DNA of 64,000 nt from a virus. The notes beneath the pieces are model-generated. The model was given only the letters and a program-made list of their open reading frames with translations, ran no database searches and had not been told where the DNA came from. Below, in pieces: positions 11,571 to 62,957 of this stretch. Position 1 is the first letter of the stretch, and each line of letters begins with the position of its first letter. The stretch is from positions 96,001-160,000 of IMG/VR virus record IMGVR_UViG_3300032180_000001. One strand, 5' to 3'. The translations under genes and the position numbers were made by a program.

Positions 11571-11609
11571 AGACCGGCTCCAAGCGCATCGTGCCCGTGG
11601 CCGCGATCT
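11571..11609 (-). promoter_or_regulatory. Conserved late-leader hairpin (copy upstream of major tail gene), with -10 TACTAT at 11625-11630
   Basis: AGAUCG-CGG-CC-loop-GG-AGC-CGGUCU. Confidence 0.7.
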
Positions 11610-11825
11610 AGTGCTGCTCCTGCCATAGTAACTGTCTCGGAGGCGGATTGAAAGCTGCGCCGGATGCACTTACCAATCTGGCGGGAGATTACTTCTCGGA
11701 GGACTTCCAATCTCCTTTACAGAAGGGACCGAGTGGATGGCTAGATGACACTCTCCCTGTTGTGATAGGATTTTCTTATCTACAATCGCGCCAAAAGCTA
11801 GTCAACCCCAAAGAGGTGCCTGATT

Positions 11826-12941
11826 ATGAAAGAGAAAATCTGCATCGATTGTGGCAGAACTTACACACACGGCGGACGGGGGCTGTGCCCGAACGACTAC
11901 GCAAAAAGGAAGCGCTACGGAACACTTCCGCCCCTGAAAACAAGAGGCCCCGACGCTCAGTGCAAAGCTCCCGAAGGATGCACGAACATGGTAGGGCGCT
12001 CCGGCGCCAGAGGGCTGTGCCCTAAGCACTACCAGCGACTTGTCAAGTCAGCTGGAGGGCTGGAGCAACCGGTGCGAACGGCTCCACTAGCGGCGAGGTT
12101 TCGCGCGAAAATAAGTACCGAGCCATGCCCGTGCGGTTGCGATTGCGAACTGTGGACGGGAGGGATTCAGCCTAAAACCGGGTACGGTAATTTCTCGATC
12201 AAGAACAAGACTTATCTAGCACATCGCGTCGCGTGGGAGCTGGAGAAAGGCGAGATACCGGACGATTTCGATATCGATCACGTCCAGGAGCGCGGCTGCC
12301 GTCATAGGCATTGTGTTAAGATTACGCACCTGGAACCTGTTCCGACGGTGCTGAACAATCGGCGTATACCAATGACGGAGCAGCGAAGAGACGGACTTTC
12401 GGAAGCAGGAAAGAGGGGATCTGCCATCCGCTGGGCAAGAGTCCGGGCCGGTGAGGCTGAAGTCGATCAGGCAATCTGCTCCCGGGTTCTCGCTTTCGTT
12501 CTTGCCCATCCCGATGGTAGTCGTGCGCGGCAGATAGCAGAGGCGCTGGATATGTCTATCCACAACGCAAGGCAAGGTCTTACCCGTCTCGCTAAACGCA
12601 AGATGATTCTCGGTAATGGTTCCGGGCTTTACCAGCCGCTACCTGCTGAAGAATGCTGGCGTCCTGTGCGAGGCTATGCCGCGTTTTATGAAATCTCTGA
12701 CCGGGGGAACGTCTCTGCCCTGGCCCGGCCGCGAACGCACGGCGGACTGCTGATTCCCCAGCTCAACTCCGCAGGCTTCCGGGTTGTTCGGCTGTCTAAG
12801 TACGGTCAAGTGACAACATGGACTGTAGGACGACTCGTGCTCGAAACGTTCTGCTGGCCACCTCCGCATCCGAAGGCGAGAGCGAAGCATGGCCTAAACG
12901 GTAAGCTAGATGACGCACTGTCAAATCTTCACTGGAGTTAA
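11826..12941 (+). CDS. HNH homing-type endonuclease fusion (Zn motifs, HNH, HTH, truncated NUMOD4-HNH)
   Basis: LAHRVAWEL...DIDHV...HLEPVPTVLNNR; then ECWRPVRGYAAFYEISDRG...HGLNGKLDDALSNLHW. Confidence 0.85.
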   Translation: MKEKICIDCGRTYTHGGRGLCPNDYAKRKRYGTLPPLKTRGPDAQCKAPEGCTNMVGRSGARGLCPKHYQRLVKSAGGLEQPVRTAPLAARFRAKISTEPCPCGCDCELWTGGIQPKTGYGNFSIKNKTYLAHRVAWELEKGEIPDDFDIDHVQERGCRHRHCVKITHLEPVPTVLNNRRIPMTEQRRDGLSEAGKRGSAIRWARVRAGEAEVDQAICSRVLAFVLAHPDGSRARQIAEALDMSIHNARQGLTRLAKRKMILGNGSGLYQPLPAEECWRPVRGYAAFYEISDRGNVSALARPRTHGGLLIPQLNSAGFRVVRLSKYGQVTTWTVGRLVLETFCWPPPHPKARAKHGLNGKLDDALSNLHWS

Positions 12942-12949
12942 ATAAAACC

Positions 12950-13186
12950 ATGACTGACTACAGGGATGCTCACCGCGACGCGATGGCCGCCGTGCAATGC
13001 GAGGTCAACGACGACACCGAGGGCGTAATGGCGGTGCTGAACAACGCGAGCAACCTGGCTGCCACGGCACAGATCCTCGCCATCTGGCAGGCAGGCTTCC
13101 TCCGGTACATAGCCTCAGAAAGCGGTGCCCCCGTGCAGGAAGTGCTCGCCGCCTGGCGAAGGAACGAGGAGACGAGGAGCACCTGA
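12950..13186 (+). CDS. Hypothetical protein
   Basis: 78 aa, phage-like codon usage, directly after the HNH gene. Confidence 0.55.
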   Translation: MTDYRDAHRDAMAAVQCEVNDDTEGVMAVLNNASNLAATAQILAIWQAGFLRYIASESGAPVQEVLAAWRRNEETRST

Positions 13187-14162: not shown

Positions 14163-14165
14163 ATT

Positions 14166-15430: not shown

Positions 15431-15521
15431 TCTGTTTCGTCCCTCGGTTACACCACCTCGTACCTCAGCACACCCCAGGCGAGACTCATCAGGAGTCGCC
15501 GAGAGAGCCGAGGAGAACAAG

Positions 15522-18530: not shown

Positions 18531-18555
18531 TGCGCACCTCCCCGCAGTTCTCTGC

Positions 18556-19720: not shown

Positions 19721-20395
19721 TTAAGTCTCGCCTTCTAGTACCCGGAGAATAATAACTGCTGCGATCCGGTTCCCCGTCGGTGCCTCCCGACTGTCCAGAA
19801 TCTCCCGGAGCATATCGGCTAGCGCCGCTTTCTCATTCGACGTAATGATCTGCGCCTGGTACCTTTCTAGCAAATTGTCCAGCTCCGGCGTATGCGGGCT
19901 GTGCAGAATGCGCGCGGCGTCATAGGCGACGTTCTTCCAGAACACGTCGATCTTGGTTTCCAGCACGCCAGTCCGGTCAGCAACCGTGCTCAGCCGGTCA
20001 GTAACTGACTGAAGCGAGGGCACGACCCGCCGGTTGATCTCGTCGACCTTGCCTTCCAGCGCTCCGGTTCGGTCAGAAACGAGATTGAGCTTGTCTGTTG
20101 CCGCAAGGAGTGCCGGAGCGACCCGGCTATTAATGTCGGCGATGTCCCGCTCGTTCTTCTCGATTTTGCTGATAAAGCCCTCTACCGAACTAGCCACTAC
20201 ATCCTTTGCGATGCCCTGTATCTGGGCAACACGATCCTTAGAGCTATCCCTTCTCCGAGAGTACAGAAAAGAGATAACAGCGACAAGAACAGCAGCTATC
20301 GCAGAAAGTATCGTGAGGATCTCGTAAAAAGCTACACCGCCGGACGAAGAAGATGCTGCCGCATCAGCCACCGTCAGTATCAGACCGCCTGCCAC
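19721..20395 (-). CDS. TM plus coiled-coil protein ending in LDxLLE..AAxIxLR domain (copy 1)
   Basis: One TM helix, heptad repeats, then HSPHTPELDNLLERY...NRIAAVIILRVLE. The start at GTG 20395 follows an RBS and the leader hairpin. Confidence 0.7.
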   Translation of the reverse strand: MAGGLILTVADAAASSSSGGVAFYEILTILSAIAAVLVAVISFLYSRRRDSSKDRVAQIQGIAKDVVASSVEGFISKIEKNERDIADINSRVAPALLAATDKLNLVSDRTGALEGKVDEINRRVVPSLQSVTDRLSTVADRTGVLETKIDVFWKNVAYDAARILHSPHTPELDNLLERYQAQIITSNEKAALADMLREILDSREAPTGNRIAAVIILRVLEGET

Positions 20396-20420: not shown

Positions 20421-20444
20421 GACCGGCTCCAGCAGGCCGCGGTC
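20421..20444 (-). promoter_or_regulatory. Conserved late-leader hairpin copy
   Basis: GACCG-CGG-CC-ugcu-GG-AGC-CGGUC downstream of TACGCT. Confidence 0.7.
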
Positions 20445-20631
20445 ATATACGCTTAGCGTAGCGTACCTGTCTAGTACAGTCTAAGCCTCGCTCGCGGGGG
20501 ATGATCCTTCCGGCGGAACGGTGAAATCGCGGTCACGTACCCAGCCCTGCCGTTCGAGGAGGACGGCCATCTCCTCGCTTACCACCGGCTTCGCGTGCAC
20601 CGGCCCGTCCCGGAAGTCCATGCCTGGCAGT

Positions 20632-23246: not shown

Positions 23247-23851
23247 TCCAGCGCCCAGGCTTCTTCCCGCTGGCCTGTGAACGGCATTAGCCTGCCCCAG
23301 GACACCATCCCCGCCGGATGTGTCAGGACCGCATGCCCGTCGTGCGGCAGGGAAATACCCATAACCAGGCCGGGTACCGGAGCATCCTCCGCAACCCGGA
23401 AGAAATCTCGCAGTCGCACCCGGCAGCCGCCACTCCTTGCCGCTTCCAGCGCGGCCTCGATCGACGTACCGCTGTCTACGGTCCCGCCGGCTAGGCGGTG
23501 CAAGGCCAGGATCTCATCGTCGGCTAGGACAATGCCGGTCACGGTCGCGAGATGGTAGGCGATCGCCAGGGCAGAGCAGGTTGGATAGACGTCGTTGAAG
23601 CCAGGCACTTTCGACATCACATCGGATGCCATGGCAGCTCGCTTAGCCGCCGTGTTCGCGGTAACCAGCGGGGAGACACTCGCCTTGTACAACGCCGCCT
23701 GGTGCTTCTGCTGCGCGGTCTGCTTCGCCTGTAGTGCGGCAAACTGCTTCTGTCCCGTCGGCAGCAGCGTGCGGGTTACCCACGACCGGGATCTCCGCGG
23801 GGTGTAGACCCGCTGCCACGGCCCGCCGCCCCACCCTTTTCCCCGGGCCAT
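23228..23851 (-). CDS. Basic N-terminus plus papain/C39-like peptidase-like domain; possibly extended upstream by a UUA hop
   Basis: YPTCSALA...DGHAVL...VSWG has Cys/His spacing typical of papain-like folds (inference). Confidence 0.5.
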   Translation of the reverse strand: MARGKGWGGGPWQRVYTPRRSRSWVTRTLLPTGQKQFAALQAKQTAQQKHQAALYKASVSPLVTANTAAKRAAMASDVMSKVPGFNDVYPTCSALAIAYHLATVTGIVLADDEILALHRLAGGTVDSGTSIEAALEAARSGGCRVRLRDFFRVAEDAPVPGLVMGISLPHDGHAVLTHPAGMVSWGRLMPFTGQREEAWALEWDILV

Positions 23852-24001
23852 AACCGGCCCTTACCGCTGGTGCGAGGACCCGCTACCCGGAGCATGACCA
23901 CTGTGCCCGACGGAGTGAGGATCTGCGGGACAATACCCCAGCAGTTGGTCGTCGTCAGCACAGGTCTCGTCCTGTCCACACCAGAGCCTCCTGTTCGAAG
24001 T

Positions 24002-24033
24002 CCCGGCTCCGGCTGTGACAAGCTGGCCGCAGG
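24002..24033 (-). promoter_or_regulatory. Conserved late-leader hairpin copy
   Basis: CCUG-CGG-CC-loop-GG-AGC-CGGG downstream of TACACT. Confidence 0.7.
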
Positions 24034-24041: not shown

Positions 24042-24854
24042 TCAGTGTAGACGTTCGAGCAGCTCGTCGCGGTAGTTCGTCACCACAAAGTCAAGCAGAG
24101 CCCCTCGGTAGTTCGCCACCACAAAGCTCAGCAGATCATCGACGCGCTGCCCCTTCCAGGACACCCATAGTTCTAGATTGTCAGGCCGATTATCAGTCTT
24201 GATGCCATTCTTGTGATGAACCTCCTCTTCTCGAAGTAGCGGACGCCCTAGCTGTTCCTCCATGACTAGACGGTGTTCGAATCGATCCCTGCCATTAACC
24301 TTAATTTTTCGATAACCATTTTCTGTAACCCAGCCGCGATCATCGTGATAGTAGGCCGGGCCATCCATCGGGCTGCCTGCCTTGCGTCGTCGCTCATGCC
24401 GAGGGCAGAGACCGCTTGCCGAACTTATCTTGGGCTGGTCGCATCCTTCCCAGACGCACTCCGGAACGGGTTCGTCTTTCCGGCGATGCGGTCGGATTGG
24501 CGCGTTCATATCTGAATGCAGAATGTACTTTCGATGATAATGCACCGAGCAGTATCCACGTGAGCTATGCGGACGATCACAGCCAGGGTGACTACACAGC
24601 TTCTTTTCAGCAAACGGTACGTCCATGTTCCGGCCATTACGAACCCGCTGATAGTGTGCCGAACAGTATCCGCCCGCATGATGTGGCCGATCACAACCAG
24701 GATGATTGCAGTTTCGTTGACTGCCCCTGAACGGTATGTTCATGTCCCGACCCGTGAGCTGACGCTGGTAGTGCGCGTTGCACAGACCTGTTTTCTTATA
24801 AGAACGAGGCCGGTCGCAGCCAGGCCACGTGCAGGTAGACTGATCTTGTGTCAT
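24042..24854 (-). CDS. HNH endonuclease with four CxxxGCxRP..GYC..HY repeats; probably leaderless
   Basis: FEHRLVMEEQLGRPLLREEEVHHKNGIKTDNRPDNLELW; TGtTAAAAT 6 nt before the ATG. Confidence 0.9.
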   Translation of the reverse strand: MTQDQSTCTWPGCDRPRSYKKTGLCNAHYQRQLTGRDMNIPFRGSQRNCNHPGCDRPHHAGGYCSAHYQRVRNGRNMDVPFAEKKLCSHPGCDRPHSSRGYCSVHYHRKYILHSDMNAPIRPHRRKDEPVPECVWEGCDQPKISSASGLCPRHERRRKAGSPMDGPAYYHDDRGWVTENGYRKIKVNGRDRFEHRLVMEEQLGRPLLREEEVHHKNGIKTDNRPDNLELWVSWKGQRVDDLLSFVVANYRGALLDFVVTNYRDELLERLH

Positions 24855-24903: not shown

Positions 24904-25845
24904 TCACACGCCGACTTTCAGGCGCTGATCGGTATACGGGCGAAGCATTTCGATGATCCACGGATTGGCCTGAATTCTCACGACACCAAGGTCTCCTGCC
25001 CCAGCAATGCCAAAAGGCGCATCCTTGCGCTTAAACCATTCGGTGGCCAGCTCCAGGCAGGCCTGCGATACTGTCGGCGGAACAGATGGCCATCCCCAGG
25101 TGCCGGTAATCTGCACTCGGTCCATGTGCGCGAACGGGTAAATATACGGGAACCACTTACCGTTCTGCAGTACCTGTACCTTCTTGAACGGGCGCTGGAC
25201 TCCGAGAGCGTTCAGGTTGTAGCGATCTTTGCCAAACTTGAGCTGGTAGTCCACGTTCTGCGTCCACGCCTCAGCGAACACGCCATTCCCGGTCTGATCG
25301 ACGTTAAGAGAGGTGATGCTGACCAGAGGGTCAATCGTCAGTTCCCGGATGTCGTAGGGTACGAACGTCCGCGTCTCGGTAATCCGGTAAAAATGGGTGG
25401 CGCAATGCTCATTGATCCACGTACTCGCCGCCTGGATGGCCTGCTGCATGGCGAAATCGTCGGAACCGTCTTCAACGCTGATCCGGTCTCGCAGCTCCTC
25501 CAGTCCGCAGTACCAGTTGCCGAGTTGGGGCGGGAACACGCGCCAGGTGCCTGGTTGAACGTCGGAAACAGCTCCGGTACCGATCCAGATGTAGCTCCAC
25601 AGCCCGTCGATTCCGGTGATGGCCGGGGAACAGGGCACGATAAGCTCATAATGCCCAACCAGTGGCTTGGTGATGTCTGCGGGAGAGGCACCGTTGTACG
25701 TATGAACAACCTGATTTCCTGATGGATCAGTGACAACACAGGAAACAGTTGTCGGATCGGTGTCGACGAGTGGGTCGCCCGCCTGAAACTCGTTGCTGAG
25801 CAGGGCTATCTCGTTCTGGTTGTCATAGTAGATAGTGCTGGTCAT
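24904..25845 (-). CDS. Head-to-tail adaptor (gp6-like) with an extra N-terminal Ig-like domain
   Basis: YCGLEELRDRI...AIQAASTWINEHCATHF...TGTWGWPSVPPTVSQACLELATEWFKRKDAPFG. Confidence 0.8.
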   Translation of the reverse strand: MTSTIYYDNQNEIALLSNEFQAGDPLVDTDPTTVSCVVTDPSGNQVVHTYNGASPADITKPLVGHYELIVPCSPAITGIDGLWSYIWIGTGAVSDVQPGTWRVFPPQLGNWYCGLEELRDRISVEDGSDDFAMQQAIQAASTWINEHCATHFYRITETRTFVPYDIRELTIDPLVSITSLNVDQTGNGVFAEAWTQNVDYQLKFGKDRYNLNALGVQRPFKKVQVLQNGKWFPYIYPFAHMDRVQITGTWGWPSVPPTVSQACLELATEWFKRKDAPFGIAGAGDLGVVRIQANPWIIEMLRPYTDQRLKVGV

Positions 25846-25865: not shown

Positions 25866-25890
25866 CCCTGGCTCCATGACGGCCGCAGCG
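25866..25890 (-). promoter_or_regulatory. Conserved late-leader hairpin copy
   Basis: CUG-CGG-CC-gucau-GG-AGC-CAG downstream of TATCAT. Confidence 0.7.
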
Positions 25891-25900: not shown

Positions 25901-28351
25901 TCATGATACTCCGCTTAGGCTTCGTGCCGGGGAGGTGACAGTACTCGCGCCTGGCGCACCACCCGACACCGCCCCGTTCCGGCTCGACGCGGACTGGTTA
26001 ACCGCACTCTGCGCAGGTACCAGAGCCAGTATGCTGTCCTGGCTTACCATCGGCTGTCCGATCGACGTCGCCGTGCTGTGCCCCTTAATGGTGCTGATCT
26101 CTAGGGTTCCCGGACGCAGTACGACAGACAGTGCCTCGGCAGCCTGCGCATGTGCCGCCAGCAGTAGCGAAGCAGCGGTTATCCCTGTTCCTGTCGCTAC
26201 GCCGGCAGTTAGGGCAACCTCGGTTGAAGGTGACAGCACCGATCCGGTCCCGCTGGCAAGAGAAGGAGTCACCGCAGGAGCCGCAGGCAAGACGGTTCCG
26301 GTTCCAGTTGCAAGACCAGCAACGGTAACGAAGTCGGCCGAAGCGTCCGGAGCAGTACTCACCCCGTTGGCCACTCCGGCAGTGATAGCTGTCGCGATCC
26401 CCGCATCCAGAGCGAGTCCAGACCCGAGAGCCCCCGGATCACCGCAGAATCCCGCTTCAGATGCCAATGCAACCCCGATGCCGACAGCGAGTACGGCGTC
26501 AGTAGCGATCGCGGCAGCTACAGGCAATACGGTTCCGGTTCCTACAGCGACCCCGAGCGTGGTCTGACTATCAATCGCAGAAGCCGGGGTGGCACCTGTC
26601 CCGCTGGCAAGTCCCGCACCCGCCTGATTATCAGCATCCGACGCTAGGCTAGTTCCGCTTCCGGTTGCGGTATCAGCTACAAGCGCGAAAGAAACAACAG
26701 AAGCCTGACCCGTACCGGTAACAAGTCCAGCGGCAGTAAGCGCAGCAGTTACAGACGATACAGTCCCGATTCCGGTAGCGGTCCCCGCTGTAATCGCAAT
26801 CACGGCTGGAGTCGTAACAATACTTGTTCCTGGCGCAAAACCAGCATTCCCAACGTTATCGGCATCAGGTGCCTGGCTCGCACCCGTTCCAGTCGCGAAT
26901 CCAGGGGCTAGGCCAATTCCGGTAATACCAAGGCCGTAGAAACCTTCGCCGTAAGAACCTCCACCGTAAATGATCTCCGTCAGGGCGCTCGCAAGATCGG
27001 CAAAACCTTGACTGCCCGCACTAGCTGACGGGACACCCCCGGTTCCGCTGGCAGATCCCGCTGCAAGGCCGATTCCTGGTGCTTGCACAGTGACGAGGCC
27101 GTCAGCAAGCCCCGTGCCTGCAGCTACCGCGGATCCGGATGGCTGCGCAATGGCGAGACCGGTCGCAGATCCTGCCGCTAGGCTGATTCCCGGTGCTAGT
27201 GCTAGGCCCGTGCCCGATGCGAGTCCTACGAAGCCCTGATTATCGGCATCCGGTGCCTGCGCAGCTCCGGTTCCAATGGCAAGCCCCGCAGCTACGAATA
27301 CCGGAATCTGAGCTGTTGGTGCCTGTGCCGTACCGGTGGCGGATGCGAAGCCGGGGGTCAGTTCTGCTCCAGGGGCTCCTGCCGTGCCCGTGCCTGAAAC
27401 GAGTCCTGCGCCCCCCTGGTTGTCGGCATCAGAGGTCTGCGCTATTCCGGTTCCGGTGGCGAGACCTGGTGTCAGTCCGACCGCAAGCCCGTCAACAACG
27501 GGAGCCCCCGTACCGATCCAGGTTTGATCTGAAGCAGCAAGGTTATCCATCCAAAACGTGTTCGTGCTGTTCGATACGCTGGAGCCGATAAGGGCGAAGT
27601 TAAGTGCGGAAACGTTGTTGTTAGCTGCGTTGTTGACTGAATCCTGCAGAGTACCAGAAGCGTCGTAAAGTCGAGCGAAAGTCTGCGCATTTCCTGCCCC
27701 GGAAACAAACATGCCTTCAATTCGGTACCAGGTGTTCAGTGACATGGCGGTACCGGTACCGTTAACATTGCCGCCAGGTCCTATGGCAGAAATATGCCCG
27801 GTGCCTGTGATACCCAGCCCTAGTGCACCGGCTCCTGCACGGAATACGTACCCGATTGAATAGTTTGTCAGGTAGATATAAGCCCGCAGATAGAGGATAG
27901 CCGAGTTATACGGAAGCGGGTTCCAGCCGGTATAGCTGAGGCTCGCGGACGTGACAAACTTATAAGCCAGGGAGCCAGCGAAAACCTGAGAGTTGTCAAA
28001 GGTAATTGTTCCCACGCCACCTTGGGTAAGCGCATCACCTGACACTCCGCCGGAGTTCCCCGCTGTTACGGCCGTAGTGTTCGAGCCGCCTTCAGCTGTG
28101 TTTTTCAGCGCTAGAAAGCGAGCGCAGGCTACTCCGGTGCCTGTGGCGAGTCCGGCAGCCAGTCCTATTCCGGAAGACTGTACAGCACCGGTTCCGTGGG
28201 CGAGTCCTGCAGTGACGAATAGAGATGCCTCGCTATACAAAACAGGTGAGGCAACCGTCGTGCAGGCCGGCCATGGGAACTGCGGGACGACAATCTTACT
28301 AGTGCCGGGAACAAGTGCGACACCGCCGTCGAGCTGGATGACTACTGCCAT
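25901..28351 (-). CDS. Large Gly/Ala/Thr-repeat virion protein with a lectin-like globular domain
   Basis: GLATGTG and DADNQ repeats; shares a block of about 780 bp with 31650-35072. Confidence 0.75.
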   Translation of the reverse strand: MAVVIQLDGGVALVPGTSKIVVPQFPWPACTTVASPVLYSEASLFVTAGLAHGTGAVQSSGIGLAAGLATGTGVACARFLALKNTAEGGSNTTAVTAGNSGGVSGDALTQGGVGTITFDNSQVFAGSLAYKFVTSASLSYTGWNPLPYNSAILYLRAYIYLTNYSIGYVFRAGAGALGLGITGTGHISAIGPGGNVNGTGTAMSLNTWYRIEGMFVSGAGNAQTFARLYDASGTLQDSVNNAANNNVSALNFALIGSSVSNSTNTFWMDNLAASDQTWIGTGAPVVDGLAVGLTPGLATGTGIAQTSDADNQGGAGLVSGTGTAGAPGAELTPGFASATGTAQAPTAQIPVFVAAGLAIGTGAAQAPDADNQGFVGLASGTGLALAPGISLAAGSATGLAIAQPSGSAVAAGTGLADGLVTVQAPGIGLAAGSASGTGGVPSASAGSQGFADLASALTEIIYGGGSYGEGFYGLGITGIGLAPGFATGTGASQAPDADNVGNAGFAPGTSIVTTPAVIAITAGTATGIGTVSSVTAALTAAGLVTGTGQASVVSFALVADTATGSGTSLASDADNQAGAGLASGTGATPASAIDSQTTLGVAVGTGTVLPVAAAIATDAVLAVGIGVALASEAGFCGDPGALGSGLALDAGIATAITAGVANGVSTAPDASADFVTVAGLATGTGTVLPAAPAVTPSLASGTGSVLSPSTEVALTAGVATGTGITAASLLLAAHAQAAEALSVVLRPGTLEISTIKGHSTATSIGQPMVSQDSILALVPAQSAVNQSASSRNGAVSGGAPGASTVTSPARSLSGVS

Positions 28352-30317: not shown

Positions 30318-30530
30318 CTACTCGTGATCCCGGTCGTCACCCTGGGCGGTAACGCCTGGCTGGCTGCTCGCTGGGTAGACGCGGGTTAGCTCGGAGCCGT
30401 CCGGGTAGACGCGAGCCGAGTCGGGGTTGCCGTCAGCGGCGAAGTACGAGCCGGTGACCGTCAGGTCGGTGAGGTTCAGGGCGGCAGCAACCGCAGACGC
30501 GAGTCCCGAGGGGAGACTGAGGTTTGCCAT
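30318..30530 (-). CDS. 70-aa protein consisting largely of the shared C-terminal 'SARVY..PGVTAxGDDRDH' tag
   Basis: RBS aggag, leader hairpin upstream; tail matches that of 52233-53150. Confidence 0.65.
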   Translation of the reverse strand: MANLSLPSGLASAVAAALNLTDLTVTGSYFAADGNPDSARVYPDGSELTRVYPASSQPGVTAQGDDRDHE

Positions 30531-30554
30531 GTCGTCTCCTGCAGGTCGAGGGAA

Positions 30555-30584
30555 CCTGGCTCCAGGATGGCGCTGGCCGCAGAT
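30555..30584 (-). promoter_or_regulatory. Conserved late-leader hairpin copy
   Basis: CUG-CGG-CC-loop-GG-AGC-CAG downstream of TACGAT. Confidence 0.7.
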
Positions 30585-30660
30585 GGCACTTCTCGTCCAT
30601 CGTACCGTCAACCGGCCCGATCGTACCTCCGCGCTCCCGAAGACTTGCCGAGCTGCACCG

Positions 30661-35125: not shown

Positions 35126-36514
35126 CTAGTGATAATTGAGACCACGAACCGAAGCGTAGGTACTCACTCCATCCGGTGTCCACACATCGCAGACGTCCTC
35201 GTACCCGTTCGTCGATGACAGCGTGACCACTCCTGACCCGACGGTGGTAGCCGCCCCCGTTATCGTCAGTGTCCCTGCGGCTCCTGAAGCTGGCTGCTTG
35301 ACGTGAAGAACAATCTTCTGGGCATACCCGGCGATGATATTCTTGAAAGAGATGGTATTCGCTCCGTTAGCAAGAGTAATCTTGAACGTATTTCCTTCGG
35401 CGTTGTAGATACCGTCACCGACCGCTGCGTAAACAGTCTGGGATCCTGCCTCCAGTACTCCGCCCATAAGTATAGCAGAAAACCCCAGGCCTCTCGTATT
35501 CGCCAGGAAATCTCCGGAGGTATTGCAGTCCATTATCCCGTTGAAGCTAAACTGGTACGTAAACTCCAGGCCGCTTGTCTGCTTGTATGCGGCAGGCGAG
35601 CTGCTGTAGATCCTGATGACTCCTATGTTTCCGTAGAAGTTAAAGCTACCCCCGGCGTTAATCGGGACCGGCCCGACGTTTCCGGCTCCGGCATCCGCTT
35701 CCATGTTGATGTTGATGATGGACTCAAGGATTCCTGCTCCGGTATTCCCGAAGTCAATTCCCTTGCCCGTGTCCGAGGTCCCGCACTTGTTGTTCAGCGA
35801 GAAGTTAAATACGGGACAGGCAAAGAATCTCGATCCGCCCTGGAAGGCCAGTCCTGTCTGATTCGGGTTACAGAGGGTCTTAATGTTGACTGAAGCTCCA
35901 CCGATAACATTCAGACCGGAAGTGTTCCTAGCTAGAACGCCTGTTGTGCAATTACTAGTGTTGAAATCAAAAACACCCCAGTTAGTCCACCCGACCAGGC
36001 TGTCTACCACGATTCCAAGCTGGCCTGCGGCCGAATAATTCTGTGCGCTCACCGATGACTTAGGGCTGTTGATATCTCCGCACACGAACCCTATCGCGTT
36101 AGCCCCGGCATTAGTCCCGTCAACGATAAAACCTGATACATAACCGCCGAGAGAAACAGTCGGGCTGGTAGAACCAATGTTGAACGCTGAGTCGTACTGA
36201 TGAAGCCAGGTATTGTTTCCGGTATGGTTGATTGTCGCGCCGGGAGAGATAAAGTTCTGCTGAACACCAAGAACGTGACCACCGCTGTCCTTATACGTTC
36301 CCGGAGGCAGGAAGATGGTGCCTGGCGACGTCCCAAGTGAAGTGAAAGCGGCAGCGATGGCAGTGCTGCTGTCATTGACTCCGGTAGAATCAGCACCCTG
36401 AACGGTAATCTGCCCAGCTGTCGACCCGTCAGCATTGTGACCAACCAGCAGCCAATTGTTGAGCTGCGTCCCCCAGATATTAGTGCTGCCGCTAACCGTC
36501 GGCAGGGATGCCAT
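35126..36514 (-). CDS. Pectin-lyase-fold (beta-helix) tailspike-like protein
   Basis: VQGADSTGVNDSSTAIAAA...TIFLPPGTYK, the typical beta-helix N-terminal signature; N-terminal anchor shared with 38865-41234. Confidence 0.75.
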   Translation of the reverse strand: MASLPTVSGSTNIWGTQLNNWLLVGHNADGSTAGQITVQGADSTGVNDSSTAIAAAFTSLGTSPGTIFLPPGTYKDSGGHVLGVQQNFISPGATINHTGNNTWLHQYDSAFNIGSTSPTVSLGGYVSGFIVDGTNAGANAIGFVCGDINSPKSSVSAQNYSAAGQLGIVVDSLVGWTNWGVFDFNTSNCTTGVLARNTSGLNVIGGASVNIKTLCNPNQTGLAFQGGSRFFACPVFNFSLNNKCGTSDTGKGIDFGNTGAGILESIININMEADAGAGNVGPVPINAGGSFNFYGNIGVIRIYSSSPAAYKQTSGLEFTYQFSFNGIMDCNTSGDFLANTRGLGFSAILMGGVLEAGSQTVYAAVGDGIYNAEGNTFKITLANGANTISFKNIIAGYAQKIVLHVKQPASGAAGTLTITGAATTVGSGVVTLSSTNGYEDVCDVWTPDGVSTYASVRGLNYH

Positions 36515-36540: not shown

Positions 36541-36567
36541 GCTGGCTCCACGCTTACGGCCGCAGCA
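36541..36567 (-). promoter_or_regulatory. Conserved late-leader hairpin copy
   Basis: GCUG-CGG-CC-loop-GG-AGC-CAGC downstream of TGgTACGCT. Confidence 0.7.
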
Positions 36568-36668
36568 TCTTGCTCTTCAGCGTACCAGTCCTGGCTGTCT
36601 CTCGACTGTCTCTGCCAGAAATCTGCCTCAAAACGCTGAGCACCATTGTCACAGCAGCCCCTCCTGGT

Positions 36669-38439: not shown

Positions 38440-38769
38440 TCAGTCCCCGAGCCTGAGCTGCGCGAGCCCGGCGTTAGCGGCTAGATCGGTACCCTCGTCG
38501 CGAGTTGTCCTGATCGACATGTACGGCCGGCCATCGTCTCCGGTCGCCTGGATCTCACCGTTCAGGTAATCCTCGCGCTCGACAGCCTCCACCTTGCAGG
38601 CAGTCCCGGCGCGAACGAGAGGCGCGGTGAGGTAATGCAGCCGCGGGCAGGTATGGAACCGTGAAGAGCCGGGGGGTAGCGCGGGGACTCGCTCTGACAG
38701 CCCGCAGTTGGGACATGACCAGTCTTCAAACGGCGTTCGCAGCAGCGGTACGTTCCGCGGCACGTCCAT
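38440..38769 (-). CDS. Zn-ribbon hypothetical protein
   Basis: WSCPNCG...HTCPRL; start MDVPRN lies just after a leader hairpin. Confidence 0.65.
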   Translation of the reverse strand: MDVPRNVPLLRTPFEDWSCPNCGLSERVPALPPGSSRFHTCPRLHYLTAPLVRAGTACKVEAVEREDYLNGEIQATGDDGRPYMSIRTTRDEGTDLAANAGLAQLRLGD

Positions 38770-38794
38770 GCGGCAGCTCCCGGGTTCGGAATCC

Positions 38795-38818
38795 GCCGGC
38801 TCCTGGGTGGCCGCAGCG
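38795..38818 (-). promoter_or_regulatory. Conserved late-leader hairpin copy
   Basis: GCUG-CGG-CC-accca-GG-AGC-CGGC downstream of TGcTATGCT. Confidence 0.7.
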
Positions 38819-38864
38819 CTACTGACCTTCAGCATAGCAGCCTGGACAACACTCGTTCCGCTGG

Positions 38865-41234: not shown

Positions 41235-41264
41235 GCGGCTGCTCCCGGATCGCGAGTGTCCCCG

Positions 41265-41288
41265 CCGGCTCCGTCTCAGGCCGCAGCG
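41265..41288 (-). promoter_or_regulatory. Conserved late-leader hairpin copy
   Basis: CUG-CGG-CC-ugagac-GG-AGC-CGG downstream of TGaTACGCT. Confidence 0.7.
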
Positions 41289-41306
41289 CTACTGGCCTCT
41301 AGCGTA

Positions 41307-41594
41307 TCAGCCTTGGTTCCGCCCGTTTCGCTGGCTGAGCGCCGCCACATCGAAAACCGTGGCCGGAACCACCTTGCTGCCGCCTCCGGCCATAGAATCA
41401 CGGAGACCCGTCAGGACATCCAGCCAGTTGCCTAGATCTTCAGCGCTGAGCAACGCGGTGAACGTAGTCGAGGCAGACCGCAGCGTGATCACGGCGAAAG
41501 TACCGGCAGGCGCATCGATGGTACCGGTCTCCAGGCGGACGGGCACCTGAGTGAGCAGCTGGTTCGCAGAATCGACGAACGACGGAGTTGTCAC
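41307..41594 (-). CDS. Hypothetical protein
   Basis: 95 aa; GTGA overlap with the upstream gene. Confidence 0.55.
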   Translation of the reverse strand: MTTPSFVDSANQLLTQVPVRLETGTIDAPAGTFAVITLRSASTTFTALLSAEDLGNWLDVLTGLRDSMAGGGSKVVPATVFDVAALSQRNGRNQG

Positions 41595-43081
41595 GGCTTC
41601 TGCCAGATGCCTCGAATGACGTCTACATCATCGAGCACGACCCACCAGCTGTCCGGCGGCCTGGCAAGCAAGTTAACGCCGATGAGCACCGCTCCCCGCT
41701 TCATGTCCTCCTGCACCTTCCGCTCAAGCTGCGCCTGAAGCTCCCGGTCATGGAACGTCAGGTTGAGGAAGATGATGTCCTGATCCCCGTACCCTTCGTA
41801 GCTAAGGGCATCACGACGGCGTACCCCGTCGAGGCCGAGCTTCCGCGCTTGATCGAGATACTCGGGTACTCGCTCGATGCCGGCTACCTCGAGACCAAAA
41901 ATCTCCTGCGCGAGCAGCATCTTAGTACCGATCCCGCAGTTCCCGGTCATCACTACGTTCCCGCCGCGACGCATAACCCAGAAGCCTGTCGGCACGGTAA
42001 AGCAGTAGGCCTTCCCGTCTTCGCTCGGCACCTTCAGGATATCCGTTTTCGGACGGCCTGCCATACCAACCATAGTGTTAGTATTGGCAAACACAGTGTA
42101 GTCAGTAGCATCCCCACGTCGATCTTCACGAAGTACCGCTCGGTACCCGCTGGCGGTCATCGCATACTGAATGAAGTCCGCTGATTCTCGGATACGCGTG
42201 CTAAATCGCCCGGCCCGTGATTCAGTTACACTGCCATCCCAGTGCAGGCATTCCTCTGAGATTACGCGAAGCTGCTCGGTCGAAGCAGGCCAGAACCCTT
42301 CATATGACTTCGTAGACCACGGCGGGATGAAACTGAAACGCACTGTTCGCGTATTGTCGAGTGATTCATGATAAGAAATTCCTGCTGCCGCAAGCAGTTC
42401 ACGTGCACGTTCGATTTTTCGTGGCTTGCGAAACTTCAGAACCGCATTTTCAGGTCGCCGCAGATACCCGTCTGCGTTCACCATAACCTGAACCCTGATC
42501 TGTTCATCGGACAGCTCTACCTTGGTGCTGATCTGCGGGATAAACGTCGTCTGAAACTCGCCACTAACGCCTAGCGCTAGACGACCGTGCTCTGCTGCGA
42601 ACTTTTCCGCCGTCCACACCGTAGGAACGCGACGCCTCTCTGCACCGGTGATCTTCCAGAACAGTACTCGGTGCTCTGCGGACAGACGCTGATTGATACC
42701 GTATTTGGTATGCAGGTCATAAAACTCATCGCATGACTTGACGATATAGCGCTCCGGCTGTACTAGCGCGCCCTCTCCAGTGTCCGGATCGTACTGCATC
42801 ACCGGGCCGCCATCGTAGTCGACGATCCTGCACCAACCTGTCGGCGACAGGTACTCGCTGTCCGCATCAACGCAACCGACCTCGAAGAAAACATCACCAG
42901 AAGCTTCCGGCAGTGCCTCAGCGAGCAAGGAGATGAACTCAGGTACCGAGAACGGCATCCACGGCAGGCTGTCCGGCTTCTCACGTCCGGCCGGATTGGT
43001 CATCCACTCGCGGTCCAGCTTTGCGACCGTGCGAAGCGTGTCAGCGATGTTCTTTGCGATGTGCTTACTGTTCGCGCTCAC
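41591..43081 (-). CDS. Class I SAM-dependent methyltransferase with a LAGLIDADG intein in motif I
   Basis: Spliced product reads FFEVG|CGIGTKMLLA...AGIERVPEY...DIIFLN (184 aa). Confidence 0.82.
   Translation of the reverse strand: MSANSKHIAKNIADTLRTVAKLDREWMTNPAGREKPDSLPWMPFSVPEFISLLAEALPEASGDVFFEVGCVDADSEYLSPTGWCRIVDYDGGPVMQYDPDTGEGALVQPERYIVKSCDEFYDLHTKYGINQRLSAEHRVLFWKITGAERRRVPTVWTAEKFAAEHGRLALGVSGEFQTTFIPQISTKVELSDEQIRVQVMVNADGYLRRPENAVLKFRKPRKIERARELLAAAGISYHESLDNTRTVRFSFIPPWSTKSYEGFWPASTEQLRVISEECLHWDGSVTESRAGRFSTRIRESADFIQYAMTASGYRAVLREDRRGDATDYTVFANTNTMVGMAGRPKTDILKVPSEDGKAYCFTVPTGFWVMRRGGNVVMTGNCGIGTKMLLAQEIFGLEVAGIERVPEYLDQARKLGLDGVRRRDALSYEGYGDQDIIFLNLTFHDRELQAQLERKVQEDMKRGAVLIGVNLLARPPDSWWVVLDDVDVIRGIWQKP
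41939..42874 (-). mobile_element. Intein with LAGLIDADG endonuclease (312 aa)
   Basis: CVDADSEYLSPTGW...LSAEHRV...MVNADGY...LHWDGS...YCFTVPTGFWVMRRGGNVVMTGN followed by Cys. Confidence 0.9.
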
Positions 43082-43323: not shown

Positions 43324-44397
43324 CTACGTCAGACCCCGTACCTGCGGAAAGAGGTTCTGATACGCATCGCGCCATCGGGTCCAGTTTTTCTCGATCGTCC
43401 AGCTTCGAGCATCATCGCGGGCAGCCTCACCCAGCTTCAGGCGAAGGTTTTCGTCAGAAGCCAAAATGCTGAGATACTTGAGCCACTCATGTTCATAGCG
43501 AACGAGGAATCCGTTCTCACCATGCCGGATAAAACCACTGTAAACCGGACAGTCAGTAGCGATCGACGGAATGCCGCGAGCTGCCGCCTCCAAAACCTTA
43601 ATATTGCTCTTAGACAGATCGAATTCGGTAACGGCGAGCGGTGCGAGATTGATGTCGAAGTCAAGCGTCGCGTAATAGCCTTCAGGGTCCTCGTACACCG
43701 GAACCCAGGGGCGGAACTTTGCCCGGTTCCCGACCTTGAAGGTTGGCCGGTAGTCAGTACCGCCGAGATGGAAATCCCAGCCTGAAAATCGCTTCAGGAA
43801 CCTGCGGACTGAACTGGTGATCAGGCTGACATCGATACCGTGACTGGCGCCTCCCTGCCAGCCGATGGACGGGCGCGACCTGACTCGGGGCGTTTCCGCT
43901 GAGCCTGTAACCTGACTGGGCGGTACCGTATCCAGCAGCCAAGCGGGGATGCAATTTGGCAGCACGGCGATGTTCTCGTTCCCGGTATGCTCATGGATAA
44001 CCCGAGCCAGCTGATCGGTGGTCACGGTAACCAGGTCGGAAACTTCGGCCATGTGCGTCACAGCATCCTGGACATCTCCCCGCTGGTAGAGGCTGTAAGC
44101 CTGGAAGTTGATCGGCGAGATGCTGAACACGTCGTCGTCGGTCTCATAGACGAGCCGTGATTGCGGGGTCCGAGCGCGACGCCAGGTTTCCAGCCCACGG
44201 TGCGTATTAAAACGCTGTCCGATGATGATGTCAAAGCCCTGCATGTCCCGGAGCGTGACCGGCGTCCTGTTGCCCTTGTCGTCGCTGGCCGACCGGAAGG
44301 TTACCTCATGACCGTGCTTTTCGAGCTGACGCAAAGGCAATTCAATCCGGTACCAGCAACATCCGCTTCCACCGTCATGACCTGCGAAGATCCTCAC
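43324..44397 (-). CDS. GT-B (GT4-like) glycosyltransferase
   Basis: GCCWYRIELPL...VYETDDDVF...SIGWQGGASH...KSNIKVLEAAARGIPSIATD. Confidence 0.85.
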   Translation of the reverse strand: MRIFAGHDGGSGCCWYRIELPLRQLEKHGHEVTFRSASDDKGNRTPVTLRDMQGFDIIIGQRFNTHRGLETWRRARTPQSRLVYETDDDVFSISPINFQAYSLYQRGDVQDAVTHMAEVSDLVTVTTDQLARVIHEHTGNENIAVLPNCIPAWLLDTVPPSQVTGSAETPRVRSRPSIGWQGGASHGIDVSLITSSVRRFLKRFSGWDFHLGGTDYRPTFKVGNRAKFRPWVPVYEDPEGYYATLDFDINLAPLAVTEFDLSKSNIKVLEAAARGIPSIATDCPVYSGFIRHGENGFLVRYEHEWLKYLSILASDENLRLKLGEAARDDARSWTIEKNWTRWRDAYQNLFPQVRGLT

Positions 44398-56328: not shown

Positions 56329-57582
56329 TCAGGTAGAAGCTCCCTTAAAGAGCTTCACGGCGCCGGTGCGATCGACCATAGTCCCATCACCACGGAGGAT
56401 GGCCCTAAATGTCACGAGATCAGTGGAAAATGCGAAATCATCGCTACGCTCGAAGCGGACCCCGCCGACGAGCCGGACGAAATACTGGCTGAAGTCACCG
56501 AACGCGATGGGGGTCGCGCCGGTGGCGAGAGCGGGCATGAACGGGTCCGCGACGAGGGGCTTGCCGAGTAGCAGGTCGGGCGATCCGAGCACCGCGGAGG
56601 GCTCCCAGATCGGCCTGCCTACGGTGTCCGTGATCTTGCGGAATCCGCCGATGGTCTTGTCCGCCGCGAGCCAGTAGCAGCTGCGTGACTGACGATACGG
56701 TGCGATGACCGAGTACTCCAGGTCCACCAGGTTGGCGTAGCTGGGGGCACCCGCAACGCCGGTCGTAGCGCCGGTGACGCCGACCGAGTTGTTGATGATC
56801 CCGTAAGGCTGACCGGAACCGGTGCCGTTCACCAGGTCGGTGCCGAATGCGTTGCCCAGCGCGCGGCCGGCCTGCATGGCGAGATAGCCGAGCAGGTCGA
56901 CGGCAGTGTCATCGATCAGCTCGCGAGCCACCTGCAGCATGATGCCGTACTTGTAAGCCGACAGCTGCTGCATGCTGAACGCCGGGTCGGAGGTAGCGAG
57001 GGCACCCGCCTGGGCCGCCGACGCCGCCGTGGAGTGCGCGGTCGTCTTCGGCACCTGCAGCGTCTCGCCGCCCCCGGTGTTGAGCACCGTAGGACCGCAC
57101 TGCATGACCCCGGACACCTCGATGAGGTGCGCGATGAGCATGTCGTAGAAGTCTGTAGGCACAATGCTCGACGCGTTGGTGCCCTGTGTGCCTGTGGTCA
57201 GGACACGATAGTTGACCGGACCGCGGGCACTGGTGTCGTGCCGGAATTCCATCGCCCGGGGTGCGCCATCCTCGCCACGCGCCCACTTGCGGAATTCGCC
57301 TTCCAGGCCCTGCATCGCTGCCGGGACCGGGCGCTGATCGGCTGGCTTGCCGGAAAGCGCATCATAAGCAGCGTCCGCATCCTTGGCCCTCTTCTCGGTG
57401 TCGAGAACGGCCTTGATGCGAGTATCGAGGGTACCCATCTCCTCCTGCATGGCGTCCCAGCGGCCCTGCTCTTCGGGAGTGAAGGCCCTGTTCTCCTCGG
57501 CCGCGGTCTCGGCGATCTTCCTTGCCTCGTTCCAGACGCCGAGACGCCGGTCACGAAGCTTCTTCGCAACTTCACTAGCCAT
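56329..57582 (-). CDS. HK97-fold major capsid protein (with delta domain)
   Basis: Coiled-coil N-terminus, then IVPTDFYDMLIAHL...LSAYKYG...LLGKP...FGDFS...F.TDLVTFRAILRGDG. Confidence 0.95.
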   Translation of the reverse strand: MASEVAKKLRDRRLGVWNEARKIAETAAEENRAFTPEEQGRWDAMQEEMGTLDTRIKAVLDTEKRAKDADAAYDALSGKPADQRPVPAAMQGLEGEFRKWARGEDGAPRAMEFRHDTSARGPVNYRVLTTGTQGTNASSIVPTDFYDMLIAHLIEVSGVMQCGPTVLNTGGGETLQVPKTTAHSTAASAAQAGALATSDPAFSMQQLSAYKYGIMLQVARELIDDTAVDLLGYLAMQAGRALGNAFGTDLVNGTGSGQPYGIINNSVGVTGATTGVAGAPSYANLVDLEYSVIAPYRQSRSCYWLAADKTIGGFRKITDTVGRPIWEPSAVLGSPDLLLGKPLVADPFMPALATGATPIAFGDFSQYFVRLVGGVRFERSDDFAFSTDLVTFRAILRGDGTMVDRTGAVKLFKGAST

Positions 57583-57638
57583 AGCTAGCCCCTCCTTCTA
57601 CGGGGGATCGGTTGAAACACCCACATCGGATGTCTCGG

Positions 57639-57682
57639 TACCGGCTCCGTCCGCACCCTGGAAGGGCAGCTACGGCCTCGGA
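57639..57682 (-). promoter_or_regulatory. Variant late-leader hairpin upstream of the major capsid gene
   Basis: CCG-AGG-CC-long inner stem-GG-AGC-CGG (AGG in place of CGG). Confidence 0.55.
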
Positions 57683-57712
57683 AATTTTGTTGTCAGCTAC
57701 CTGCGCGGACTG

Positions 57713-58726
57713 CTAGATCTCGTCTGCGTAGGGGTCTTCCTGGTTGGCCTGCAGCGCGAGCATGGCCTGCGCCCCGGACAGCACCGGCTTGGGCGGCGGC
57801 TTCGGAGCCGGGATGTTCCGCTTGTCCGGGCCGATATTGTCGGTACGCTTGAAGAATTCGAGTACACGCCCGTCGTTCACCCTGGAACGAACTTCCTCGA
57901 CGTCGGCCTGCACCCAATTGGCGAGGGATTCGACCGCACCGTTCATGGCCCTGGCTGCGGCCGTCGCGTCGGGGTAGGCCGGGTCGAGCACCGGCGCCAC
58001 GTCGACGAGCTGCACGGACACGAGGGTCCGCATCGGGAAGTTGAAGTCCGTGACGCCCCATTCGTCACCGCCGGGGAAGACCCGGAATGCAAAGCTGGAA
58101 TGCCGGACGTCTCCGCGATCGACGTATTCGAGAATGTCAGCCCGGGACTGCGGCGGCAGGACGTCGTAGAGAAGGCCCTGCTGATCGACTCGAAGCGAGA
58201 GCGTGTTGGCGTGCGTGGTGCCAAGTAGCAGGTCATCCTTGTGGTTGAATCGGCACACGACATCCGGCCAGTTCTCAGTGCGCGACTGGTCGAAGGCGGT
58301 AGTGTCGACCTGCTCCACGAAGCCGCTCATCCGTCGGGACAGCTTGTTGAAGCACGCGGCGTAGCCGTAGATACGCTTCGGACCACCGGAATGCTCTTCC
58401 CTGGTCTCCAGCGGGAACTTGGTGAACCGGCGCTCCGGCCACGCATCACCCGAGGTGGTTGCCCCGAGAGCGTCACGCTGCGCTCCCGACACCTTGATGC
58501 CGAAACGCCTCGCGGCCGTCATGATCTTCGGCATTGCCTGCTTGCCGAACGGAGACTGCGGTGCCCGCGCGAGAGCATTACGAGCATGTGCCTCATCATG
58601 CACCGGGAAATGCCGCTTGCTTCGCGGCGATGTCCGACCTGACGGGTCCTTTATGCCACCCGGCTCGATAAATGCGAATGCGCTGTCTTCGAGGTCGTTG
58701 ATTGCTTGAGATGATAGTGTGCTCAC
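57713..58726 (-). CDS. HK97 prohead protease with an N-terminal small extra domain
   Basis: IYGYAACFN...FVEQVDTTAF...CRFNHKDDLLLGTT...RGDVRHSSFAF...LVDVAPVLDPAYPD. Confidence 0.92.
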   Translation of the reverse strand: MSTLSSQAINDLEDSAFAFIEPGGIKDPSGRTSPRSKRHFPVHDEAHARNALARAPQSPFGKQAMPKIMTAARRFGIKVSGAQRDALGATTSGDAWPERRFTKFPLETREEHSGGPKRIYGYAACFNKLSRRMSGFVEQVDTTAFDQSRTENWPDVVCRFNHKDDLLLGTTHANTLSLRVDQQGLLYDVLPPQSRADILEYVDRGDVRHSSFAFRVFPGGDEWGVTDFNFPMRTLVSVQLVDVAPVLDPAYPDATAAARAMNGAVESLANWVQADVEEVRSRVNDGRVLEFFKRTDNIGPDKRNIPAPKPPPKPVLSGAQAMLALQANQEDPYADEI

Positions 58727-58755
58727 AGATCTTCCTTCCATGTTATACTTAGGTC

Positions 58756-62133: not shown

Positions 62134-62174
62134 AACCCCTACCACCTCCCTCCGCCTACTGCTAGAATGGAACT

Positions 62175-62867
62175 ATGGGTAGAGGGACGCCGGACCTGGC
62201 AGATCAAAAATTCGGGCGCCTGCGGGTGCTGACGCGAGACTGGGACGCTCCTGGTCCACATGCTCAATGGCTGTGCTGGTGCGACTGTGGCACGATGACT
62301 TCGGTAGCTAGCAGCGCTCTGCGCTCGGGTGCAACACAAAGCTGCGGCTGCCTGCACAGTGAACGAACGGCAACATCGAACGCAGCTCGCGCAGGCTATA
62401 GCGCGCCTATCCGCAGGAACACAAAGCCCCGACCTAGCTTGGCTGACCCAACAGTATGGCGCAGTAGCTCCCGATCCTACGGAAGCTGGATTAACATGAT
62501 TCGCCGTTGCACGCACATGAACGATCCGCGATACCCCGAATGGGGTGGACGAGGTATCACTGTCTGCGAACGCTGGTTGTCCTTCGACAATTTTCTGGCC
62601 GATATGGGAGAACGTCCGCCTAAAATGTCCCTGAACAGAATCGATAACAACGGGAACTACGAACCCGAAAACTGCAACTGGGCTACATCTCATGAGCAAC
62701 AGATGAACACCAGGAGCTTTAAACTGATACCCGAAGTGGTAGCCGAGATCAAACGTCTCCGCACAACTGGACTGACACTGGACGCGATTGGAACGAAGCT
62801 CAACCTGCATCGCAATACTGTGTCGCGAGCCCTGAGCGGGAAGACGCGGCAGCGTAGCGGTAAGTAG
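62175..62867 (+). CDS. HNH-type homing endonuclease with C-terminal HTH; probably leaderless
   Basis: WLCWCDCG...SCGC...SWINMIRRC...[43 protein letters not shown]; TGcTAGAAT 6 nt before the ATG. Confidence 0.88.
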
Positions 62868-62933
62868 CTTTGACCTACCGTTCACCTGCTCGACTTGCCT
62901 CACCTGACAACAGACCCTTCGCTGGAACGAGGG

Positions 62934-62957
62934 CCTGGCTCCGACGCTGGCCGCAGG
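62934..62957 (-). promoter_or_regulatory. Conserved late-leader hairpin copy for the portal transcript (separated from portal by the inserted HNH gene)
   Basis: CCUG-CGG-CC-agcguc-GG-AGC-CAGG downstream of TACTCT. Confidence 0.7.

Follow-up and report, generated by a model that had tools for sequence, protein, structure and literature searches.

The window analysed in this study is a stretch of 64,000 nucleotides, bases 96001-160000 of one 184,980-bp contig (59% G+C), and comes from the IMG/VR phage record IMGVR_UViG_3300032180_000001, for which the CheckV completeness estimate is 99%. A short hairpin recurs in this window in the leaders of the virion genes, and we describe here the hairpin, the genes that follow it and its possible role in the expression of late genes. 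The virion proteins encoded by the phage include a portal protein, a prohead protease and an HK97-type capsid protein, and further virion genes are of the large terminase, head-tail adaptor, major-tail-like and tailspike-like types.

The phage genome carries a WhiB gene (E=2e-12); sigma-70 region 2 gave no match in it, and region 4 gave sub-threshold matches only. From the presence of WhiB and the lack of a region 2 match, the phage appears to use the RNA polymerase of its host, and we read the source of the window as a large actinobacterial phage dependent on that polymerase. With its soil relatives it belongs to a clade with genomes of about 130-210 kb, which is widespread in the metagenomes we searched; no cultured member of this clade was present in the collections we searched. 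A megablast comparison of 24 kb with cultured phages gave zero matches, and tblastn with the capsid protein gave a best protein match of 32% identity and no annotated relative.

Hairpin copies and the genes behind them

The first-pass annotation had listed ten positions for the hairpin, and the motif is present at all ten of them, always on the minus strand, the coding strand in this part of the genome. Nine of these copies are canonical, that is, they read from 5' to 3' stem, G, CGG, CC, 4-17 nt, GG, AGC, C, stem, and the remaining one is a variant located before the capsid gene. Each canonical copy forms a single hairpin 21-39 nt long, with an outer stem of 4-6 bp and a CC/GG helix of 2-4 bp. 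When the window was searched with the regular expression CGGCC-N3-30-GGAGCC, we obtained 11 matches on the minus strand and 0 on the plus strand. Nine of the matches had a paired outer stem, and those at 46727 and 19340, which have no stem, are probably chance matches. Beyond the window, another canonical copy is located before the large terminase gene (genome 161137-161169). Thus, the whole genome has 10 canonical copies, all of which are on the gene strand and in intergenic gaps of the virion module. With a covariance model (CM) built from these ten copies using the structure given in the first-pass annotation, the copies themselves scored 27-37 bits, and the next best match in the 185-kb genome scored 18.6 bits. 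Because the copies have only a core of about 32 nt in common, the hairpin is not a dispersed mobile repeat.

The copy at 62933..62958 (37 bits) has a 5-bp stem, GCCUG/CAGGC, and a 6-nt loop. Its -10 box, TACTCT, lies at 62971..62976 with a predicted transcription start near 62963, and it is followed by the open reading frame (ORF) 62139-62903, which makes up the N-terminal part of the portal region; in the relatives, orthologous leaders stand before the portal gene. The variant before the capsid gene lies at 57636..57686 (13.7 bits). The copy at 41263..41288 (32.5 bits; -10 box TACGCT, 41301-41306) precedes the tailspike-like gene 38865-41234, whose product has pectate-lyase-like and Gly-rich domains in Pfam, and the copy at 36541..36566 (29.1 bits; TACGCT, 36579-36584) precedes the 462-aa fibre-like gene 35126-36514. 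An N-terminal WGTQLN motif is common to the products of these two genes. Between them, the copy at 38794..38818 (33.2 bits; TATGCT, 38831-38836) stands before the 109-aa ORF 38440-38769. The 70-aa ORF 30318-30530 is preceded by the copy at 30554..30584 (30.1 bits; TACGAT, 30599-30604), and the head-tail adaptor gene 24904-25845 (phrog_442, E=6e-25) by the copy at 25868..25888 (32.1 bits; TATCAT, 25903-25908), in which 3 bp are followed by a mismatch. The copy at 24002..24033 (28.6 bits; TACACT, 24044-24049) precedes the 67-aa ORF 23776-23979, and the copy at 20421..20444 (34.2 bits; TACGCT, 20460-20465), which has the stem GACCG/CGGUC and a 4-nt loop, precedes the 224-aa ORF 19721-20395. The copy at 11571..11609 (27.2 bits; TACTAT, 11625-11630) has a 6-bp stem and a 17-nt loop. 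Directly behind it lies a group I intron (11253-11508, minus strand; Rfam RF00028, 52.5 bits), and beyond the intron is the major-tail-like ORF 10786-11304 (phrog_10528, major tail protein, E=3.6e-5).

In summary, the canonical copies precede the large terminase gene, the portal region, the head-tail adaptor gene, two fibre/tailspike-like genes, three small ORFs and the 224-residue ORF. Searches of Pfam and PHROGs with the small motif-driven ORFs gave nothing informative. In the relatives, the same leader is found before the terminase gene, the portal gene, a 185-residue post-capsid gene and a sugar epimerase gene.

Several observations were made around these leaders. HNH endonuclease genes adjoin two of them, at 24042-24854 (minus strand) and 11826-12941 (plus strand), and the -10 box of the copy at 24002..24033 lies within the last codons of the former gene. 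A gene for a PhoH-like ATPase (41591-43081, minus strand; phrog_32482, E=4e-39) lies in the virion module directly upstream of the tailspike leader. PhoH-type proteins are able to act on RNA, and one might speculate that this ATPase is a candidate remodeller of the leaders. Just upstream of the terminase leader are four tandem, abutting ORFs of 60-93 aa (L086:1457-2320, minus strand, which corresponds to genome 161357-162220). The first ~20 residues of each are near-identical to the N-terminus of the large terminase (M-x-V-R/H-L-V-A-V-P-D-V-F-L-P-D-G...), after which the sequences diverge, and the hairpin is absent from all four. In the epimerase-gene leaders of two relatives (L035:16331-16367 and L043:17719-17756), the 3' conserved block of the hairpin is tandemly duplicated, GGAGCCGGAGCCGGG.

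The annotation had also placed the hairpin shortly after a TAnnnT box and 20-40 nt before a start codon, in front of late genes. Such a box ends 12-21 nt before CGGCC in 10 of the 10 canonical copies, and it occurs at 7.3% of random genome positions. Alignment on this box of 52 leaders, taken from the window's genome and its relatives, gave the consensus GGnn-TAcgCT-g and, as expected from the annotation, no shared -35 element. A purine was found 7-8 nt past the -10 hexamer in 46 of the 52 leaders, which is the spacing expected of a transcription start. The stem would then begin about 1-8 nt from the 5' end of the transcript. Because the distance between the box and the hairpin varies, we regard the two as separate elements. 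On the other side, in 9 of the 10 canonical copies the end of GGAGC is separated by 25-37 nt from a start codon that has a Shine-Dalgarno (SD) sequence, the exception being the copy at 11571..11609, next to which lies the group I intron. Thus, as had been proposed, the hairpin directly follows -10 boxes and precedes virion (late-type) genes. Consensus sigma-70 promoters and U-tailed terminators were at chance level in the region scanned, 44-64 kb. In the relatives, the -10 box of the post-capsid gene was seen after the capsid gene inside an inverted repeat of its own (e.g. L035:12190-12240; CCCAGG...TATCCTGGG), and this repeat, overlapping the next promoter, may terminate or attenuate the capsid transcript.

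Structure of the leader RNA

The search of IMG/VR with the capsid protein yielded 271 related stretches, the best 80 of which have 76-87% identity to the capsid protein of the window. A model made from the window's genome only gave 90 matches (E<=1) in 56 related loci, and 82 of the matches were on the gene strand. In the alignment of the relatives, the covariation of the outer stem that had been noted among the window's copies was borne out: 86% of the cells were paired, and 6 of the 8 pairs were changed on both sides. The covariation score of this alignment was reached by 0 of 500 shuffles. For example, the second stem pair was C-G (59 rows), U-A (8) or U-G (6), and it was unpaired in no row. 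Over five stem pairs we counted 29 G.U against 0 A.C, which indicates that the element is an RNA of the sense strand and not a palindrome of duplex DNA.

Folded alone, the hairpin is the minimum free energy (MFE) structure or nearly so, and with z-scores near 0 it is not unusually stable. The argument for an RNA structure is therefore based on covariation. The length of the distal loop is variable, as described in the annotation, at 4-17 nt for the canonical copies compared with 25 nt for the variant, and longer terminal loops prolong the upper helix and do not break it. The sequence of the terminal loop is not conserved; conservation sits in the internal loop. The annotation had called the CGG/AGC internal loop fixed. 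This holds for the canonical copies, in which it is invariant, but the capsid class described below reads AGG or UGG in place of CGG. The loop could form G.G and G.A pairs. We rejected its reading as a K-turn, because the sequence has only one GA step. An alternative core register, CGGC/GCCG with a bulge, is energetically competitive in 4 of the 10 copies, and was rejected because the A of CAGG arms always covaries with the U of the 5' arm. In agreement with the view that this was no known family, no family of Rfam 15 overlapped any copy of the motif, whether at gathering scores or at E<=10, and the group I intron was the only Rfam match in the window. A link of the hairpin to the guide-RNA-like array of the phage was also considered and rejected, since there is no GGAGCC/GGCTCC in the array region and the three recovered spacer pairs look unrelated.

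The variant at 57636..57686 reads CCG-AGG-CC-[25 nt structured loop]-GG-AGC-CGG and is situated between the genes for the prohead protease (57713-58741) and the major capsid protein (56329-57582). A leader of this class is kept between the protease and capsid genes in 23 relatives. In this capsid-leader class, GG/AGC is retained, the first loop base is A or U, and the outer stem is longer. The upper helix is extended by CCGU/ACGG, which is 100% paired, and a double change from C-G to U-A occurs within the CC/GG pair itself. No -10 box was found in the leaders of the capsid class. The RNA element is thus separable from the promoter, which argues against a promoter element at the DNA level.

This last point bears on the explanation that the motif acts as DNA, that is, as a downstream promoter element or as the operator of a late activator or repressor, recognized either as double-stranded DNA or as a hairpin of the non-template strand. 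The tight linkage of canonical copies to -10 boxes would fit such an element. Nevertheless, a DNA element does not agree with the tolerance of G.U and the absence of A.C, with conserved halves that are spaced by 4-25 nt and keep their pairing, with the 12-21 nt range of the distance from the -10 box, or with a conserved copy that has no promoter. We consider this explanation very improbable. The claim of the first-pass annotation that the motif is an RNA structure and not a DNA operator is supported by the orientation of the copies with the genes, the compensatory pairs, the G.U bias, the variable insertions with pairing kept, and the copy lacking a promoter.

The position and stability of the hairpin also have to be considered with regard to messenger RNA decay. 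The hairpin could be a passive 5' stabiliser or processing mark, in which a stem-loop with an SD-like GGAG shields late mRNA from RNase E/J or marks a cleavage site, with no dedicated regulator. The hairpin lies 1-8 nt from the predicted 5' end, the capsid gene, which is the most heavily expressed, has the stablest version, and GGAG recalls the STAB-SD elements, such as that in the leader of Bacillus cryIIIA. For this function, however, a stem would suffice, yet ten loop bases are invariant across relatives with a capsid identity of 76-87%. In addition, 5-8 unpaired 5' nucleotides are long for the protection of a 5' end, and z-scores near 0 are not what a stabiliser would lead one to expect. 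We therefore think that a purely passive role is quite unlikely.

Predicted masking of the ribosome-binding site and the proposed switch

Complete leaders were folded over the segment that begins 2 nt ahead of the stem and ends 18 nt beyond the start codon. The hairpin was present in the full-leader MFE structure in 0 of 50 leaders, and enforcing it cost a mean of 8.8 kcal/mol. In the full-leader MFE structures, the 3' stem strand and the bases following it were paired with the SD sequence and the spacer. The duplex energy of this segment was -13.7 kcal/mol with its own leader versus -12.1 kcal/mol across leaders (p=2e-4). An uninterrupted run of 6 or more pairs with its centre on the 3' stem strand was found in 40 of 55 leaders, compared with 23 of 55 for the reversed segment and 10 of 55 for the 5' half as controls. 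In the family of terminase leaders, the alternative helix has 11-13 bp and is 89% paired, and a G->A change in the 3' arm of the window's genome is matched by C->U both in the 5' arm and in the downstream partner. As an example, at 62904..62937 (minus strand) the 3' stem strand and its flank, CAGGCCCUCG, are complementary to the SD region of the same leader, CGAAGGGUCUG, and this pairing is the MFE structure by ViennaRNA with a duplex energy of -18 kcal/mol.

Because the SD sequence and spacer can pair with the 3' stem strand and its flank, the hairpin and the masking of the ribosome site are mutually exclusive, and the masked form is predicted by the folding model to be more stable than the hairpin. 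A closing stem whose 3' strand is complementary to the region of ribosome binding is the arrangement of a translational ON switch. The capsid class is without SD masking: its mean longest helix is 3.8 bp, compared with 6.4 bp, and its ribosome site is A-rich and open.

Since the two folds exclude each other, the masked form is the stabler one, and ten bases of the loop and its flanks are invariant, the most economical interpretation is an ON switch with a factor. We propose that the hairpin is a clade-specific cis-regulatory leader RNA of virion genes, and that it acts as a factor-stabilised ON switch for the translation of late genes; we put the probability of this proposal at roughly 45%. 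In the mechanism we envisage, host RNA polymerase would start at the -10-only promoter (GGnn-TAcgCT), at a purine 7-8 nt later, and the hairpin would fold first, almost at once during transcription. A trans-acting factor, most probably a protein that the phage makes ahead of its late phase, would recognize the invariant internal loop and lock the hairpin as the RNA emerges from the polymerase. With the hairpin locked, the SD sequence would be free and the virion module would be translated. Without the factor, strand exchange would occur, and the 3' stem strand together with pyrimidine-rich bases would mask the SD sequence of the gene 25-40 nt downstream. Leaky transcripts made before the factor is available would thus refold and stay silent. 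The stabler capsid version, which has no promoter and whose ribosome site is open and A-rich, suggests that binding of the factor may also aid stability or ribosome loading.

The same ON architecture, in which the 3' strand of the closing stem doubles as anti-SD, would also be expected of a riboswitch sensing a small molecule or ion, with the internal loop as the aptamer and a ligand that closes the stem and frees the SD sequence. For an aptamer, however, a core consisting of a 3x3 loop and 2 bp is very small, and its restriction to one phage clade and to virion genes does not favor this idea. No known riboswitch class matches. The strict pattern, searched in contigs of bacterial genomes, gave scattered single matches in GC-rich genomes, consistent with chance. 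A riboswitch therefore seems a remote prospect.

Processive antitermination of the lambda nut/boxB or HK022 put type deserves more attention. In such a case the nascent hairpin, with or without a phage protein, would modify the host polymerase soon after initiation so that terminators are read through across long virion operons. The motif lies close to the promoter, and its hairpin has emerged by the time ~40 nt are transcribed. Its invariant internal loop is purine-rich and of the type bound by arginine-rich peptides, which bind such RNAs in Rev-RRE and N-boxB, and the phage itself has neither a polymerase nor a sigma factor. In contrast, with at least 10 separate promoters 2-16 kb apart there is less need for read-through, and terminator-like sites are at chance level in the half that was scanned. 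There is no boxA, the terminal loop is not conserved, and the capsid copy has no promoter. Antitermination also does not require a hairpin 25-40 nt before the start codon that overlaps an anti-SD partner. We therefore regard it as unlikely. Of the two roles suggested in the first-pass annotation, antitermination and translational activation, the anatomy of the leader favors control at the translational level, because the start codon lies at a tightly constrained distance and the 3' half of the hairpin can pair with the ribosome-binding region.

Several results weigh against a factor-stabilised ON switch. In the window's own nine copies the SD complementarity is marginal (p=0.08), being weak for 41283 and 36562, and this p-value and the one given above are optimistic because the leaders are phylogenetically related. 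A tetranucleotide co-variation test, in which a CAGG arm with downstream CCUG was compared with CGGG with CCCG, was not significant. GC-rich sequence pairs easily; the SD complementarity is nonetheless more than GC-rich noise. The capsid class keeps the conserved core, though nothing is masked there. The search for the factor gave no candidate: the small ORFs upstream of the module and of the terminase gene had no Pfam match and were uninformative in PHROGs, arginine-rich proteins not having been searched for. CAT_RBD (PF03123), CsrA and CSD were not found in the 185-kb genome, CAT_RBD being detected in the control genomes, and the best ANTAR match was 12.4 bits against a cut-off of 27.3 bits.

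Full-length relatives carry at least 4-6 copies each, nearly all on one strand, and these counts are lower bounds. A search of IMG/VR with the strict pattern found 107 stretches, which were largely contigs already found via the capsid protein. Nearly every virion transcript of the clade appears to be marked by one small structured RNA. With over 100 instances in a defined genomic context, and with covariation, the motif alone is a clean candidate for a new Rfam family. To our knowledge, temporal control of late genes is understood in only a handful of model phages, and it is almost always transcriptional. We think it possible, and hold this view tentatively, that an undescribed RNA motif and an RNA-binding factor together make up a post-transcriptional late switch, which unmasks the ribosome sites of at least 10 transcripts in large actinophages without a sigma factor or polymerase of their own. 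If so, the factor locking the hairpin would set the timing of the whole virion module. The pair would represent a new RNA-protein (or RNA-ligand) interaction and a regulatory logic for phages whose transcription depends entirely on the host polymerase, and it could serve as a compact, portable ON switch for the control of expression in actinobacteria.

Other features of the genome were noted as well. A giant ORF of more than 3,052 aa (window 1-9159, minus strand) is open at the window edge and has an ADP-ribosyltransferase exoenzyme domain, PF03496, at residues 456-619 (E=2.7e-6). A group-1 glycosyltransferase gene (window 43324-44397, minus strand) lies within the virion module; together with the hairpin-led NAD-dependent epimerase gene in the virion module of relatives, it hints at glycosylation of the virion.

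Comparison with known systems

The hairpin lacks the defining features of the families with which we compared it, namely SAS/ESAS, nut, put, RAT, ANTAR and CsrA. The hairpin recalls the SAS and ESAS elements of Cluster K mycobacteriophages. Like the present motif, they are actinophage-specific repeats near many gene starts and contain GGAGCC, and ESAS is an inverted repeat with a variable spacer; the function of both is still unknown. SAS is a 13-mer, GGGATAGGAGCCC, located 3-8 nt upstream of many start codons, and ESAS consists of imperfect inverted repeats of 17 bp, in which its authors found compensatory pairing to have little support (PMC3203893). In the present motif the arms are 4-6 bp plus 2-4 bp, they covary, and they lie downstream of promoters. 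The SAS 13-mer, with up to 2 mismatches, was not enriched, giving 1 match in 64 kb versus 2.07 expected.

Leaders recognized by ANTAR proteins have paired hexaloop hairpins, whereas here there is a single hairpin with variable loops. In CsrA/Rsm sites GGA is placed in a loop over the SD sequence; here CC pairs with the GG of GGAGC, and covariation is seen in this pair. The internal loop, being purine-rich, lying between G-C helices and possibly forming G.G/G.A pairs, is like those of the RRE stem IIB type, at which arginine-rich peptides dock. This resemblance concerns the chemistry of the loop only, with no known homology or peptide.

The boxB of lambda N-nut and the put sites of HK022 are, like the present element, promoter-proximal hairpins of phage leaders that act in cis on downstream operons. 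BoxB is recognized via a conserved terminal loop, a GNRA-like pentaloop, and occurs twice per genome after early promoters. In contrast, the terminal loops of the present hairpin are 4-25 nt long with no conserved sequence, the internal loop is the fixed one, and there are many copies, all before late genes near start codons. A put site is composed of two adjacent stem-loops over ~70 nt and acts without a protein, but the present element is one hairpin.

The RAT hairpins of LicT, BglG and SacY are short, imperfect hairpins with conserved internal loops, whose 3' side overlaps a stabler alternative helix, and the binding of the protein favors the weaker hairpin. The present leaders are of the same build. 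The difference is that the alternative helix here masks the SD sequence and is not a U-tailed terminator; moreover, there is no CAT_RBD in the phage and the sequences are unrelated.

In the Com/mom system of phage Mu, a hairpin lies just upstream of a masked ribosome-binding site, and binding to it turns on the translation of a late function, because the inhibitory pairing cannot form once this upstream hairpin is stabilised. The Mu system has one site and a known zinc-finger protein. Here, at least 10 sites per genome extend over the whole virion module, the internal loop would be the recognition element, no protein resembling Com was identified, and the sequences show no similarity. By analogy, then, the element described here would be functionally most like the Com/mom hairpin of Mu and the RAT antiterminator hairpins, and like nut and put in its position.

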